This document shows, one piece after another, positions 57,379 to 63,409 of a stretch of 64,000 nt of DNA. Each line of letters opens with the position of its first letter. The first letter of the stretch is position 1. The notes below the pieces were generated by a model. That model was not told where the DNA came from, made no database searches, and saw only the letters and a program-made list of their open reading frames with translations. Made by a program: the position numbers and the translations under genes. Source of the stretch: Bacteroidales bacterium. GTDB taxonomy: Bacteria > Bacteroidota > Bacteroidia > Bacteroidales > UBA10428. The stretch lies in contig JBGSSF010000012.1 in assembly GCA_041737175.1 (NCBI GenBank), positions 19 to 64,018 on the forward strand, written 5' to 3'.

Positions 57379-57469
57379 CTTCAATCTTCAATCTTCAATC
57401 TTTAGTCTTCAATCTTCAATCTTCAATCTTCAATCTTTGATCTTTGATCTTCAATCTTCAATCTTCAAA
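57379..57469. repeat. Tandem heptamer CTTCAAT x13 (variants CTTTAGT, CTTTGAT)
   Basis: Counted directly. The last unit overlaps the stop codon (57465-57467) of the minus-strand transporter gene. Confidence 0.95.
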
Positions 57470-58352
57470 CTTTCATCATTCTTCTCAACGGTATCAACAT
57501 TACCACCCAGGCCAGTTGGGATACTATAAAAAAGACATTCATGTTGCCCGGAAAGAAGAGAGCGGTAATTGTCACACCCAGTCCGATGTTATTGGCACCT
57601 GAGCTGATGGAGAACGTTTTTCTGACATCTTTGGTTTGTGAGGGGAACATAAAATAGCCGGCCAGATACATCAAAAAATAAAGGGCCAGGGCTTCGACGG
57701 CATATAAACCCACCATTCCGGGATTGGCGAGTATGGTGGGTTTGTTTCTGGCGGTGACCACTATGAATATTGCACTTAGGCCCAAAAGGGTGAACATAGG
57801 ATTGTAACGCCCGATAAAGTCCTTCAAGACCCTGAATTTCCTTACCAGAAGATGCACAATGAAAGGCAAAACTATCGTATAAACAAGTGTAAGAAGCATT
57901 TTTCCGGCCGATACATCAATAGTTGAACCCAGCAGCAGACTCAACAGGAAGGGGATGGTGAGCACGGACAGAAAACTACTGTAGATCAAAATTTTAAGTG
58001 ATAATTCAGGTTTTCCACCGAAAATCAACGTGAATGAAGGAGAGGATACCGCTGCCGGCAAAAGGAAAGAGAGTAGCAATGCCGGGGCATAAAAGTCACT
58101 GATCCATTTAAATGCAAAAAAAATGGCAAGGGGAAGGAGGACATAGCGCAAGAACCAGAACCGGAATGAGATTCTGAAATCGGTTTTCAGCGACTCGGAC
58201 GAGAAATTGATCTGAAAGAAAGAACAAAAGATGATAAAAGCCAGTGCAAGAATAACGATGAGCGGAGTAGCTTCACCAACAGAAGGAACAACCATGCCAA
58301 CCAGGCAGGAGACCAGTAAGAGTGTACCAAAATAGCGCTGAATAAAGCTCAT
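57465..58352 (-). CDS. SBF-like (bile acid:sodium symporter superfamily) membrane transporter
   Basis: About 9-10 TM segments with two family-like signature segments, LLPAAVSSPSFT and SISSGANNIGLGVT. Confidence 0.5.
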   Translation of the reverse strand: MSFIQRYFGTLLLVSCLVGMVVPSVGEATPLIVILALAFIIFCSFFQINFSSESLKTDFRISFRFWFLRYVLLPLAIFFAFKWISDFYAPALLLSFLLPAAVSSPSFTLIFGGKPELSLKILIYSSFLSVLTIPFLLSLLLGSTIDVSAGKMLLTLVYTIVLPFIVHLLVRKFRVLKDFIGRYNPMFTLLGLSAIFIVVTARNKPTILANPGMVGLYAVEALALYFLMYLAGYFMFPSQTKDVRKTFSISSGANNIGLGVTITALFFPGNMNVFFIVSQLAWVVMLIPLRRMMKV

Positions 58353-58355
58353 AGG

Positions 58356-59120
58356 CTAAATAGCCCTGAAAAACTCATAATTAATGCTTTCCAGTTCAGA
58401 CATGTTAGGATACCGATAGAAAAGCAGGTTATCTTTATCACCCACATAGAAACCAGTCTGGATGGTCCTGAATAATAATGATCCATGATAAAAACGCTGA
58501 ACGGTTTTCATGCACTTTACTTCATCGGTCTTGAGTATTTCAAGGCAGTCTCTCAAATGGCCCACAGACGGATAAGGCAAATGTTCAGCTGAACCGGCCA
58601 TTGGATTTGTTGCCAATTCACCCAGTTTCAGGTCAACGAACAATAATTTGGGGAGGTATATGGGTTTGGTGCTGTCGGTAAGTTCCCTTAAAAACTGCGA
58701 AGGGGTTAACTTACTGGCAATCTGTGGCGTTACGGGGCATAATTCCTGGTACAGATGAAGGGCTTTTGGCGTTTCTTTGTTTTTATCGTAGGCGGTTTGT
58801 TTCAGTTCAAGCACGATTCCATTGTCAGTGCTGACATACAAGCTTTTAAATGCTTTAAGTGGAATGGTTTCCAGTACTTTATACACGGATAAGTAAACCG
58901 AATGTTTCGGACTGCCATCGGGCTGTCTGACACAACGTTTATTGATATAGTCCATGTTAATCAAATGCTTGATCTGGTCCAGGTCGATCTCGAAAAAGAT
59001 AGACTGTCCTCTGTTGCGTTTCTTGGTACCGGTAGCCATGTAAGCCCCGAATTCCATCGGGGGGATCATGGAAGCAATCAGTGCTTCAGGTGTAATTGAG
59101 AGGTAAATATACTTTTCCAT
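58356..59120 (-). CDS. Hypothetical cytoplasmic protein (254 aa), no family recognised
   Basis: Clean ORF ending 3 nt upstream of the transporter gene start, so a probable operon. No motif I can name. Confidence 0.5.
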   Translation of the reverse strand: MEKYIYLSITPEALIASMIPPMEFGAYMATGTKKRNRGQSIFFEIDLDQIKHLINMDYINKRCVRQPDGSPKHSVYLSVYKVLETIPLKAFKSLYVSTDNGIVLELKQTAYDKNKETPKALHLYQELCPVTPQIASKLTPSQFLRELTDSTKPIYLPKLLFVDLKLGELATNPMAGSAEHLPYPSVGHLRDCLEILKTDEVKCMKTVQRFYHGSLLFRTIQTGFYVGDKDNLLFYRYPNMSELESINYEFFRAI

Positions 59121-59316: not shown

Positions 59317-60936
59317 TTATGGTGCAGGCACCAGATCAGTGGTTTTAATCTTAGCTGGTGTGAAAATGCCCAAAACACCTTTCAGGCCAACACTCATAAC
59401 AATGTTATAAAAGAATACAACAAATCCGATGAAGATCAGGGTACCTGAAAGTGCAGCCAGGATCATCAGGAGGTTAAACTCACCATTCACATACAATGCT
59501 CTGCGCAACATGCCATGAAGTCCGGCCATGCCCATAAATGCGCCCATCCCGATTCCACCGGTAAGATGGCACCAGAAATGGATATCCACGAGTTTCTGAC
59601 TGTAAACTTTTGCACCGTTGGTAAGAATCGGGAAAAGAAAATAAACAGCTGCATAAAGAGTCATGGTAAGGCCAACAAGGACTGCAACGTGAACATGAGG
59701 CCCGACAATCCACTGGGTATTATGAAGAATCCTGTTCAGTCCAACGTCAGCCTGCATTATTCCAGCTGGCACGGCAAGCGCGAAACCGAGTAAACCTCCC
59801 AAAAGGAATTTCAGGGGGCCTGTCATTTTGAGAGGACGTGCACTCCAAAGGGTTGCCAACGTGATGAAAAATGCCAATCCCTGGGTTATAAGTTCAAAGG
59901 CAGTTACCATTTCACCTGAGATCACCTTGAGCGCTCCCGGCTGTGCTTGGTCCGACAGAAGGTGATGCGACCATACGGTCCATGATACGATCAGTTCCAA
60001 AAGCAAAGCTGCCCTGGCAATATTCTGCATGAAGAGCGGTTTGTTTGTTATCATCATGGCAAGCAGGTACCAGGTGCCTGCGACAAAGATCAGTACCAGT
60101 CCGTCCGCTATCAGATCAAGGCCCCACCAGAACCAGTTTTTGTACAGCAGCGCATCAATGGCGGTTTCCTTAAGATCGTACCCGAGTATTGAACCAACCA
60201 TATAGACGAGAATGAGAACGCCGGTAAAAAGAATTGTGATGGTGTTCAATGCCATATCAACGCTTCCTCTTGCTACGGCTGCCACAGGAAGTGGTACCAG
60301 ATGCTCTTTCTTGTTTTTTCTGAAAAGATTTTTAAACCCGGTGACACCCAGGGCGGATGCCATTAGAGCGCCTGACGGTTGTTTCTCCCAGCCTTTCGGA
60401 GTATATGCAATGGTCTTGAAAACATTAAGGATAAAAAAAGCAGTTCCTACCATTACCAGGGCAATCCCGACAATGAAGAATGTTCCTCCCCAAACGCTGA
60501 ATTGAGAGAAGTCAGCAGGTAAAGGCCAGTAGAGAGTATATAGGGGAGCATAATGACTGATAAAACCTGAAAACCAGAAAATAAATGTTCCAACTGTAAT
60601 CAGGATAAATGTCCAGTTGCCAAGTTTTATGCTCCAGAGGGGTTTTTTCATCAGGAAGGGAACCAGGAATAGAAATGCTCCGCAAACAATGGAATAGGTA
60701 GATCCGAATATTCCAACAAGCGGGTGAGCAGTGAGAATGGCAAAGAACTGAGATTCAGTAATAAAAGGGAGGGGCTTAACCTCATAAAGTCTCATCAGCA
60801 TACCTTCAATGACTACGAAGCCGAAATAAATCAGACCTACAACGACAAACCGCAATGTCAGCTTTTGCATGGGAGTAAGGGTTTCCGGTTTAAAAATACC
60901 TTCCTCACCGTTTATTAATGTCTTATAAAAATTCAT
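59317..60936 (-). CDS. Heme-copper oxidoreductase superfamily subunit I homologue with a non-canonical active site
   Basis: About 12-13 TM segments. Present: LTAH71PLVGIFG (helix II heme His), WSH324H325LL (helix VII) and GPH414VH416V (helix X). The helix VI segment reads WFWWGLDLIADG, with no His. Confidence 0.8.
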   Translation of the reverse strand: MNFYKTLINGEEGIFKPETLTPMQKLTLRFVVVGLIYFGFVVIEGMLMRLYEVKPLPFITESQFFAILTAHPLVGIFGSTYSIVCGAFLFLVPFLMKKPLWSIKLGNWTFILITVGTFIFWFSGFISHYAPLYTLYWPLPADFSQFSVWGGTFFIVGIALVMVGTAFFILNVFKTIAYTPKGWEKQPSGALMASALGVTGFKNLFRKNKKEHLVPLPVAAVARGSVDMALNTITILFTGVLILVYMVGSILGYDLKETAIDALLYKNWFWWGLDLIADGLVLIFVAGTWYLLAMMITNKPLFMQNIARAALLLELIVSWTVWSHHLLSDQAQPGALKVISGEMVTAFELITQGLAFFITLATLWSARPLKMTGPLKFLLGGLLGFALAVPAGIMQADVGLNRILHNTQWIVGPHVHVAVLVGLTMTLYAAVYFLFPILTNGAKVYSQKLVDIHFWCHLTGGIGMGAFMGMAGLHGMLRRALYVNGEFNLLMILAALSGTLIFIGFVVFFYNIVMSVGLKGVLGIFTPAKIKTTDLVPAP

Positions 60937-60954
60937 AGGAGTAGGAGTTTAAGG

Positions 60955-61533
60955 TTACTGATTATTGTTTTGGTTTGCAGGGTTCTCTGACACCACTTCA
61001 ACCGCATCCTTCACGATCATGAATACCCCCTTTGGTCCGGAATACTCTGTGGAACGTATTGTATATAAGCCCGGTTGATCAAACCTCCAGAGAATATCAT
61101 TGCGGTGGCCCGGTACAACCTGCATCTGAAAAAGCATACTGTTATCCTGCCGGAAAAGGCCAAAACCATAAGTCAGATCTTCCGATTTTACATCGAAAAG
61201 AACCAAGTCATTGAGATGAATAACCATTTTTTCCGAAGGAAGAATGAATTCATGGTTTCTAACGGTAATGTTAAATGTTTTATCAGGCGCATAATCAGAC
61301 CTGTTTAAGTCCACTTTTGTCCAGGGTATGGTGTTGTACGTTATGATGTGCAACGATACGCCCAGGACTGTCAGAAAACCTACAAAAGTGTAAAACAATG
61401 CCGGTTTAACACTTTTTTGCTTGCCATTACCCGTGACCCTCCAGGCAAACCAGGCAATCAGCAGAATAATTACAATACAGTAAAATGTATATGCAATTGT
61501 CTGACCCGCTAATACCATCTGTGAATCAACCAT
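60955..61533 (-). CDS. Subunit II-like membrane cupredoxin lacking CuA ligands
   Basis: Two N-terminal TM helices and a cupredoxin-sized domain. The CuA loop position reads STEYSGPKGVFM instead of CxxxCGxxHxxM, and the upstream His position reads DLTYGF. Confidence 0.65.
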   Translation of the reverse strand: MVDSQMVLAGQTIAYTFYCIVIILLIAWFAWRVTGNGKQKSVKPALFYTFVGFLTVLGVSLHIITYNTIPWTKVDLNRSDYAPDKTFNITVRNHEFILPSEKMVIHLNDLVLFDVKSEDLTYGFGLFRQDNSMLFQMQVVPGHRNDILWRFDQPGLYTIRSTEYSGPKGVFMIVKDAVEVVSENPANQNNNQ

Positions 61534-61574: not shown

Positions 61575-61892
61575 TTATTCGATTTTGATTAAAAGATCGG
61601 CCAATGAAGTTTTTTTCAGAATGCCCAGAATTTCTTCCTTCATCCTCATCCATACAGGATGTAAATAGCACTGCTGTTTGAAAGGACATTCACTGAATCC
61701 CATCAGGCATTTATTCAAACTGTCAAGCCCTTCGGTAGCTTCGATGATATCAGCCATGAATATTTCGGTTTTGTCCTTTCCCAATCTGAAACCGCCGTTT
61801 CTGCCTTTGATACTGTCAACCAAATGGCTTCTGGTAAGGTTTCCCATTATTGTGCGAAGATAGGAATTGCCAACGTATCTGTTCATCTTCAA
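61575..61892 (-). CDS. Rrf2 family regulator fragment (N-terminal ~33 aa of the wHTH missing; possible pseudogene), Fe-S Cys triad retained
   Basis: SYLRTIMGNLTRSHLVDSIKGRNGGFRLGKD aligns with IscR/NsrR residues ~40-70. Cys triad C-x7-C-x5-C (NKCLMGFSECPFKQQC). Upstream, the frame hits a stop after 23 unrelated codons, inside the preceding gene. Confidence 0.6.
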   Translation of the reverse strand: MKMNRYVGNSYLRTIMGNLTRSHLVDSIKGRNGGFRLGKDKTEIFMADIIEATEGLDSLNKCLMGFSECPFKQQCYLHPVWMRMKEEILGILKKTSLADLLIKIE

Positions 61893-61900
61893 CCAACTTG

Positions 61901-63409
61901 CTAAAGGGGTTCCCAGGTCATATCCCTGTCGAGCGGATAACTGGGACGATGAACATTTTTATAGGGCAAATTCGGAATATCGAGATTACAAAATCCCGAG
62001 GTCAGAGCCATTAAATGCACCGGCGCTATATCGCGAAGTTCAGGAAACAAATAGCCCAATTTGACAACCACTATTTTGAAGTCCAAAGGATTGAGCCCAA
62101 CCTCCTTAAAATCCCTGATCTCCACAAAAGAGCGACAGGATTTTAAAATGACGGTCGTCACACCCTCCGTTTCAACAACGGCTGCCCCCCTGCTTGTATT
62201 CATCACCGAATCAGGAGATATGAATACTACTTTTGCGCTTATTGGAAGCGGCTTCCCAAAAACTGTATCAACTTTGCCCCCCAGCGTGAGATCTACTTTT
62301 TGCCCAATCCCGGCTTCCATATATGTTGTCAAAGCTTCAGGATCAACAATGCCTGCCATCAGGGCATTCTTACATTTATGATGTAGCAAAGCACCCAGTA
62401 CCTGTGTGTTATCACCAGGTGCGCCTGCAGTCGTGTTATCTCCTGAATCGGAAATAAAGACAGTAGTATCCGCATATTCCTGTGATTTGAGTATCATCTC
62501 ATCCATGGATCCGGAGGGCACATCCAGTTCAAGTTTTTTTCTGTTGTCCCAGATCTGCCGGGCCAGGCGAACGGCTTCATTTTTGGCTGTTGCACTGTAT
62601 TTTTTATCTTTGGCCACTACAAAAACCCTCATTGCGGAACGAGGAAGGTCCGCCCAGCAATAACCTGCAAAAATGGAAGCATCGACCAGGCCTTCCATTT
62701 TACTGATGCCAGGGATTTGTTCATAGATGGGGCGCAAGGGCTCCACTTCCGTAATGCTTTTTTCACCCGGCACCAGTATGGGTATTACTACACTCTCGAT
62801 CTGAGGTTTCCATCCGGATTTCAGGGCATCCACAAGCATTTGTGCAGCCCTGGCCCTTGTTTCGGCTCCATCTCTGTGTGGCGCAGTGCGATAAGCGGTT
62901 AACATATCTATATTTTCCACAAACTCGGGGGAAGGATTTCCGTGAAGGTCGAAACTTCCAGAAATGAGAATGTCTTTTCCCACCAGGTCCCTTATTCCCT
63001 TGATGAGGTCAACCTGGGCGTCTTCGTAACCTTCAACATGCAATGCGCCATGCATATCCATATAAATGCCATCAATTTTTCCTGCATTTTTGATATCATT
63101 CAGTATCTCGTTCCTGAAGTTTTCATAGGCTGACCGTTCGACTATCCCTCCCGGCCAGGCATCTGCATGCAGGGTTGGAATAATTTCCATGCCCGCGTTT
63201 TTCAACACATCGGCCCACAGTTGATCCTTCAGAACTTCAGTTCCGCGCAGCACATGAAAGTCGGTTTCTTTTGTAAGGAAGGTTGAAAACGTGTTGGACT
63301 CATGACTGATCCCTAAAGTCAATATCCTTTTCCGGGCTGGTTCCTGCTTACATGTAAAAGCTGAAAACAGGAATAATCCTGACAAAACATATTCTATAAG
63401 GTTTTTCAT
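61901..63409 (-). CDS. M81 family metallopeptidase (MlrC-like)
   Basis: N-terminal motif LGISHESNTFS and overall ~500-aa MlrC N+C domain organisation, with a signal/lipobox-like start. Confidence 0.65.
   Translation of the reverse strand: MKNLIEYVLSGLFLFSAFTCKQEPARKRILTLGISHESNTFSTFLTKETDFHVLRGTEVLKDQLWADVLKNAGMEIIPTLHADAWPGGIVERSAYENFRNEILNDIKNAGKIDGIYMDMHGALHVEGYEDAQVDLIKGIRDLVGKDILISGSFDLHGNPSPEFVENIDMLTAYRTAPHRDGAETRARAAQMLVDALKSGWKPQIESVVIPILVPGEKSITEVEPLRPIYEQIPGISKMEGLVDASIFAGYCWADLPRSAMRVFVVAKDKKYSATAKNEAVRLARQIWDNRKKLELDVPSGSMDEMILKSQEYADTTVFISDSGDNTTAGAPGDNTQVLGALLHHKCKNALMAGIVDPEALTTYMEAGIGQKVDLTLGGKVDTVFGKPLPISAKVVFISPDSVMNTSRGAAVVETEGVTTVILKSCRSFVEIRDFKEVGLNPLDFKIVVVKLGYLFPELRDIAPVHLMALTSGFCNLDIPNLPYKNVHRPSYPLDRDMTWEPL

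Follow-up and report, generated by a model that had tools for sequence, protein, structure and literature searches.

A gNOR-Type Heme-Copper Oxidoreductase in a Bacteroidales Genome: Active-Site Residues, Family Assignment, and Predicted Nitric Oxide Reduction

Introduction

Which reaction is catalyzed by a heme-copper oxidoreductase that carries aspartate both in place of the helix VI histidine of the CuB site and in place of the tyrosine to which this histidine is cross-linked in oxidases? The question is raised by two adjacent genes found in a 64,000-nucleotide stretch of a Bacteroidales genome (assembly GCA_041737175.1, contig JBGSSF010000012.1, positions 19 to 64,018; hereafter the window), which encode a catalytic subunit I and a cupredoxin-like subunit II and are here called the query pair. 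A first-pass annotation, made from the sequence alone, had proposed a non-canonical, quinol-fed nitric oxide (NO) reductase devoid of a CuA center and provided with a metal site of two histidines and one carboxylate, and had pointed to a family, named gNOR, defined by a His-to-Asp ligand change. The comparisons described below leave little doubt that the query pair is a gNOR (norGH-type), a member of the heme-copper oxidoreductases derived from the B family. The enzyme type is already known, being in the literature since 2008, when it was reportedly described by Sievert and by Hemp and Gennis, and having been surveyed in 2024; the query pair adds a further member and no new kind.

gNOR is the sole heme-copper family, and the first, in which an active-site histidine is replaced by aspartate, and the active-site tyrosine is also lacking (Murali et al. 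PNAS 2024, PMC11214002). In its cupredoxin subunit II the CuA ligands are missing, as in bo3, and a quinol has been proposed as the electron donor; related to the B family, gNOR is present in both Bacteria and Archaea, mostly from sulfidic habitats, and was counted in 156 genomes of a smaller GTDB release (PMC11214002). A bioinorganic mimic of the site in gNOR reduces NO, as cited in PMC11214002. The genes are named norGH (PMC8906906), and a table adapted from Hemp & Gennis gives D as the active-site residue and Sulfurimonas, Sulfurovum, and Persephonella as hosts (Table A4 in PMC8756737). The family named in the first-pass annotation is real and was correctly described (PMC11214002), and the inferred CuA-less, quinol-fed His2-carboxylate enzyme matches what has been published for gNOR, for which NO reductase activity is itself a family-wide prediction. 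Together with three other predicted NO reductase families, gNOR is held to make a substantial contribution to the N2O produced in nature, and its active site is the most unusual in the superfamily.

Active Site of Subunit I

Subunit I retains the heme ligands, namely H71 in the motif LTAHP and, in helix X, H414 and H416 in the motif GPHVHV; H71 and H416 are the ligands of the low-spin heme and H414 is that of the high-spin heme. The helix VII pair is kept as well (W-S-H324-H325), and helix VI carries the motif F269-W-W-G-L-D274-L-I-A-D278. The histidines of the protein are located at positions 71, 128, 212, 324, 325, 405, 414, 416, 453, 457, and 474, and none is found between residues 212 and 324. 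All residue numbers given in the first-pass annotation, those of the heme ligands, of the helix VII pair, and of D274 and D278, were confirmed by a script, as was the histidine-free interval.

The replacement of the CuB histidine by D274 and of the tyrosine by D278 depends on the register of helix VI, on which three alignments agree. The ungapped alignment of the family profile to the caa3 chain 2yev_A sets D274 on the helix VI histidine and D278 on the tyrosine; hhalign against HxxxN-type relatives lays WWGLD over WWGLH and D278 over asparagine; and MAFFT L-INS-i with six B-type sequences lays WWGLDLIAD over W(W/F)FGHPxVY. In addition, W270, D274, and D278 are spaced at i, i+4, and i+8, as are the W, H, and Y of the oxidases. 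The hhalign comparison with six B-type representatives is gapped around the motif and is not trusted; it also offers no histidine. A phmmer search of subunit I against the PDB was tried and rejected, as it returned only weak cbb3 matches (~1e-5) in which the motif is off by one residue, and the family profile was used instead.

The two aspartates are fixed in the family. All of 49 family members, at 39–89% identity to the query, have D274 and D278 as well as H71, H324, H325, H414, and R478/R479, and both aspartates are invariant across bacteria and archaea; H416 is near-invariant among the relatives. The ratio of nonsynonymous to synonymous substitution rates (dN/dS) of subunit I is ~0.02–0.03 in comparison with close relatives, with a proportion of nonsynonymous differences (pN) of 0.05–0.10 and synonymous sites near saturation. 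The invariant aspartate pair and the low dN/dS thus indicate a selected state and neither chance nor decay. Among the close relatives aligned, the sole exception at H416 is protein P0082, from a Bacteroidales metagenome-assembled genome (MAG), which reads GPHVQV in place of GPHVHV and may contain a sequencing error.

An AlphaFold2 (AF2) model of subunit I (pLDDT 83.9, pTM 0.87) has twelve long helices, with D274 and D278 on helix VI (262–297) and H324/H325 just past helix VII; in Foldseek comparisons it matches the whole oxidase subunit I fold with TM-scores of 0.74–0.79 (A-family oxidase, bo3 subunit I). Two further groups of conserved residues are found outside the metal site. E44 is invariant, and the profile alignment puts it on the quinol-site Asp of E. 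coli bo3. An invariant polar stripe is present on helix VIII (S340, T345, E348, and T351, three of which are at i, i+3, and i+6), accompanied by Y290 on helix VI, and it lies where enzymes of the B family (ba3) have their K path. Conserved residues of gNOR that do not map onto the B-type channel are noted in the bioRxiv version.

Subunit II

The cupredoxin domain of subunit II has been deprived of nearly all CuA ligands, as the first-pass annotation had read from the loop in which both cysteines are serine, the histidine is glycine, the upstream histidine is tyrosine, and the methionine is kept. In the PDB alignments to ba3 CuA domains, four of the five ligand positions are likewise replaced: the upstream His by Y122, the two Cys by S161 and S165, and the second His by G169. 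Of the five, the methionine (M172) alone remains. The ba3 equivalents of Y122, S161, S165, G169, and M172 are H114, C149, C153, H157, and M160. All five residues are invariant in 75 subunit II relatives, and so is the loop R160-S-T-E-Y-S-G166; the longer loop STEYSGPKG is common to the subunit II proteins of the query, Persephonella, and Nitrosophilus.

Family models recognize this subunit faintly: TIGR02866 CoxB matches weakly (5e-7), the Pfam scan gave no match, and the ba3 CuA-domain chains in the PDB are weak matches. A script check of subunit I and subunit II revealed no CxxCH motif for heme c binding.

Assignment to the gNOR Family and Distribution

The NCBIfam equivalogs for oxidases do not accommodate subunit I, whose score is far under every cut-off. 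In an exhaustive homologue search of a library of 1.84 billion representatives, only two close full-length 50% clusters were found, P0121 (74% identity) and P0123 (46%); the other full-length matches listed are at most 29% identical to the query, and all keep the histidine, either as GHPxVY or as HxxxN. A search seeded with the intermediate member P0392 led to proteins of Persephonella sp., Persephonella atlantica, and the campylobacterotal Nitrosophilus alvini, which as a set are 62–65% identical to the query (62–63% for the Persephonella proteins) and in which the motifs YKNxFWWGLDLIADG, WSHHLLSDQ, and HNTQW are identical to those of the query. One of the Persephonella copies sits on a contig of 1,930,284 bp.

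In a neighbour-joining (NJ) tree, the query family is monophyletic in 100/100 bootstraps, its neighbours being B-type (HxxxY) and HxxxN sequences, and it forms a clade of its own; inside the family, the query, P0121, Nitrosophilus, and Persephonella form a further 100/100 clade. The defining sequence features published for gNOR are all found in the query, and the clade includes Persephonella, a genus named among the gNOR hosts; on these grounds the query is assigned to gNOR.

Three other assignments were considered and rejected. sNOR and bNOR have three histidines, asparagine at the tyrosine position, and CuA, and the query has aspartate at both positions and no CuA; the HxxxN relatives P0215 and P0249 are 27–28% identical to the query and fall outside its clade. 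In cNOR and qNOR the comparison fails on the metal site, which here would consist of two His and one Asp, on the missing CxxCH, and on the C-family PDB chains, which match only at ~1e-5. A B-family O2 reductase would have GHPxVY and CuA, in place of which the query has GLD274LIAD278 and four of five CuA ligand positions replaced.

The distribution of the family was traced in 185,579 species genomes, among which at least 535 relatives were found, a number of the same order as the published 156; the 80 best of these relatives supplied all the neighbourhood counts given below. These 80 are 76–92% identical to the query and derive mostly from Bacteroidales MAGs, while some carry the labels Ignavibacteria, Gemmatimonadota, and Acidobacteriota; remoter members belong to Thermoprotei, Methanomethylicia, Chloroflexota, Actinobacteria, Nitrospirota, and Nitrospinota. 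Subunit II adjoins subunit I in 78 of the 80 loci. Among the uncultured Bacteroidales that inhabit sediments, fens, and sulfidic sites, gNOR is very common; the family is under very strong constraint.

Comparison with Known Heme-Copper Enzymes

With gNOR (norGH) the query shares the His-to-Asp change, the Asp at the tyrosine position, the CuA-less cupredoxin subunit II, and the lack of heme c, and there is no difference in the defining features; its local traits are the Bacteroidales host, the upstream gene for an Rrf2 regulator (truncated), and the absence of the 196-aa third open reading frame (ORF) of Persephonella and Nitrosophilus. The ba3 oxidase of Thermus thermophilus resembles the query in having a cupredoxin subunit II and a subunit I of 12 helices with the same heme ligands, an HH pair in helix VII, a WW motif ahead of the helix VI ligand, and an Arg pair following helix XI. 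In contrast, GHPxVY of ba3 is GLDxxAD in the query, which has neither the His-Tyr cofactor nor the CuA ligands, and the single N-terminal hydrophobic segment of ba3 subunit II corresponds to two in the query; the identity of the query to B-type representatives is 24–29%.

qNOR and cNOR share with the query the predicted reaction, a carboxylate at the non-heme metal site, and the absence of the Tyr cofactor, and qNOR also shares the predicted quinol donor; however, both descend from the C family and keep all three His in addition to a Glu, cNOR has a heme c subunit, and qNOR has a fused N-terminal domain. E. coli bo3 is similar to the query in the CuA-less cupredoxin subunit II and takes electrons from quinol, the donor predicted for the query, but it belongs to the A family, pumps protons while reducing O2, and has both an intact CuB site and the Tyr cofactor.

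Predicted Function and Alternative Readings

In the proposed mechanism H324, H325, and D274 would constitute a 2-His-1-carboxylate site above the high-spin heme, for which non-heme iron (FeB) and not copper is the predicted metal, and D278 would act as a second-shell or bridging carboxylate. Because the His-Tyr cofactor is missing, a four-electron reduction of O2 is not expected, and the predicted reaction is the two-electron conversion 2 NO + 2 e- + 2 H+ -> N2O + H2O. The electrons would pass from membrane quinol, which should be menaquinol in Bacteroidales, to the low-spin heme, and the quinol site may be near the invariant E44 and R49 of helix I. In Bacteroidales the enzyme would likely serve to detoxify NO, or as a part of partial denitrification, in habitats that are sulfidic and anoxic. 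The functional reading is favoured by the strong purifying selection, the missing Tyr and third His, the NO-reducing mimic of the site, the position of E44, the cluster-type Rrf2 genes upstream in 45 of 80 related loci, the hemerythrin, DUF438-PAS, and DUF1858-DUF2249 genes near 4–8 of them, and the sulfidic habitats and sulfur genes associated with the family. To gNOR membership together with quinol:NO reductase function we assign a probability of roughly 0.6.

Several points weigh against this combined reading. No gNOR has been purified or assayed, which leaves the metal, the quinol donor, and NO reduction itself at the level of prediction (PMC11214002); the scarcity of biochemical data noted in the first-pass annotation is real, as no NO reductase activity is published for any gNOR. 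The convergence of D274, H324, and H325 over the heme is deduced from helix register only. The window and the 80 related loci contain no nir, nos, nrf, or other denitrification gene, and the Rrf2 regulator encoded upstream of the pair is not assignable to NsrR and is truncated in the query genome. As for the family itself, the gNOR anchor is a genus named in the literature without a published accession number, and the FIND preprint ascribes to gNOR a His-to-Glu change of a heme ligand that is not seen in the query family, where H71 and H414 are invariant and H416 is nearly so.

The strongest competitor, although an unlikely one, is a quinol-fed terminal oxidase or peroxidase of anaerobes that scavenges trace O2 or H2O2 instead of NO. 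The homologue of M. oxyfera was reportedly first called a bo-type quinol oxidase, and the relatives are annotated only in generic terms ('cytochrome c oxidase subunit I', 'cbb3-type'); the carriers, however, come mostly from anoxic, sulfidic sites, even if hemerythrin-type O2/NO-binding genes stand beside some of the copies. Oxidases of the A, B, and C families and NORs do cross-react with NO and O2 (PMC11214002), but the His-Tyr cofactor, held necessary for O2 reduction (PMC11214002), is absent in 49 of 49 members, in which one of the three metal-binding histidines is gone as well.

Slightly less probable again is that the NO reductase label is wrong, at least for the Bacteroidales clade, and that the enzyme acts on another, sulfur-linked substrate (N2O, a compound of the nitrosothiol/HSNO type, or a sulfur oxyanion). 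In 15–19 of the 80 loci the module has split YeeE/YedE sulfur-transport genes next to it, along with two or three genes for rhodaneses, gNOR is enriched in sulfidic environments, and the absence of nir and nos genes nearby points in the same direction. Nevertheless, neither the window nor the Persephonella and Nitrosophilus loci have the sulfur genes, which therefore do not belong to a conserved core; the adjacency may reflect only a shared habitat, and such chemistry is not known in the heme-copper superfamily. A related proposal, to which we give equally little credence, is that the gNOR of Bacteroidales and Ignavibacteria serves not denitrification but a sulfide-adapted module with the adjacent YeeE-type importer and rhodaneses; the enzyme could, for example, remove NO or the NO-sulfur adducts (HSNO, nitrosopersulfide) that arise on contact of nitrite with sulfide, and its carboxylate-rich metal site would be an adaptation that preserves activity under sulfide levels poisonous to a copper or iron site with three His.

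That the query is an ordinary B-family oxygen reductase with a misaligned helix VI histidine, or a decaying copy, is refuted, since the single gapped profile-profile alignment to B-type representatives is outweighed by the lack of any His between residues 212 and 324, by the three concordant placements of D274 and D278, and by the invariance of both aspartates across bacteria and archaea, the dN/dS of ~0.03, and the separate clade of the family.

Gene Organization, Regulator, and Neighbourhood

The gene pair and the features around it are listed in Table 1. Subunit II is followed by subunit I after 18 nt, and 41 nt separate the end of the Rrf2 ORF from subunit II. A scan for sigma-70 promoters and terminators gave signals at the level of shuffled sequence, such a scan being ill-suited to Bacteroidota.

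Table 1. Position of the gene pair and of the surrounding features in the window (aa, amino acids; TM, transmembrane).
Feature	Position	Strand	Description
SBF/PanS-like (SBF-family) transporter gene	57465-58352	minus	After subunit I and the 254-aa ORF
254-aa ORF	58356-59120	minus	After subunit I; no Pfam or NCBIfam match
gNOR catalytic subunit I	59317..60936	minus	539 aa, 12 predicted TM helices; Pfam COX1 2e-54
gNOR subunit II	60955..61533	minus	192 aa; two N-terminal hydrophobic segments, then CuA-ligand-less cupredoxin domain
Rrf2-family regulator gene, 5'-truncated	about 61575..61901	minus	Longest ORF 61575-61892, 105 aa, TTG start at 61892
M81/MlrC-like peptidase gene	61901-63409		Upstream of the Rrf2 gene

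The gene at the head of the module had been annotated as Rrf2/NsrR-type, and it can be assigned to Rrf2 but not to NsrR. Only the Rrf2 superfamily model is passed; with respect to the NCBIfam equivalog of NsrR, whose cut-off is 182 bits, the window copy reaches 42.4 and a full-length sister 40.8. The Cys-x6-Cys-x5-Cys cluster motif is retained in the window ORF, but the Pfam Rrf2 match begins at profile position 37 of 132, and in a tblastn search the alignment of the full-length 134-aa sister Rrf2 starts only at residue 27 of that protein, immediately behind the stop codon of the M81 gene. The gene has therefore lost its 5' end here, and its product lacks ~26 N-terminal residues from the winged-helix domain, which suggests that a rearrangement removed the first helices of the DNA-binding domain. 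Given the NsrR score under the cut-off and the truncation, the Rrf2 gene is weak evidence for NO sensing in this genome.

A full-length Rrf2 gene is located directly upstream of the module in 45 of the 80 loci and is absent beside the Persephonella and Nitrosophilus modules. A cluster-binding Rrf2 repressor at these 45 loci fits control by NO, iron, or redox state, and in these other genomes an Fe-S Rrf2 repressor probably controls the gNOR genes; in the query genome, where the repressor is truncated, expression of gNOR may consequently be unregulated or driven from upstream. In Bacteroidales the genes travel as a compact cassette (Rrf2, subunit II, subunit I), frequently with genes for sulfur handling alongside, and the clade offers a mesophilic source and a regulatory handle for a first biochemical test of a His2-Asp heme/non-heme site.

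The M81 peptidase, the 254-aa ORF, and the SBF transporter were considered as operon members and rejected, as none of them recurs in the 80 related loci. The 254-aa ORF and the SBF transporter gene do co-occur on two contigs with an identical subunit I (L081 and L082).

The sulfur block mentioned above comprises two half-size YeeE/YedE genes, a 155-aa ORF without Pfam match, and the two or three genes with rhodanese domains, and it is found within about 3 kb of the module in loci L004, L007, L008, L011, L014, L016, L023, L024, and others; its position beside gNOR fits the reported link of the family with sulfidic habitats. Genes for a cupin, a DUF438-hemerythrin-PAS_10 protein, a DUF1858-DUF2249 protein, and a stand-alone hemerythrin are near the module in 4–8 loci and could encode gas- or redox-sensing partners; this group is located downstream of the module in L001, L003, L004, L007, L008, L017, L027, and L041.

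In Persephonella and Nitrosophilus alvini, a conserved ORF of 196–197 aa directly follows subunit I (11665-12255 in L083/L084 and 11705-12298 in L085). It has no Pfam family above threshold and is hydrophobic in its C-terminal half. Neither the window nor the Bacteroidales loci contain it, and it could encode a lineage-specific third subunit.

Two diverged gNOR pairs, ~85–89% identical to the query, are present in single MAGs of Bacteroidales/Rikenellaceae (L017 and L037, L021 and L041, L039 and L063), which could be due to paralogy or to mixed bins. Copies that are 78–82% identical to the query occur in MAGs labelled as Gemmatimonadota, Acidobacteriota, or Eubacteriales (L048, L056, L059, L065, L067, and L077), a pattern suggestive of either horizontal cassette transfer or faulty binning.

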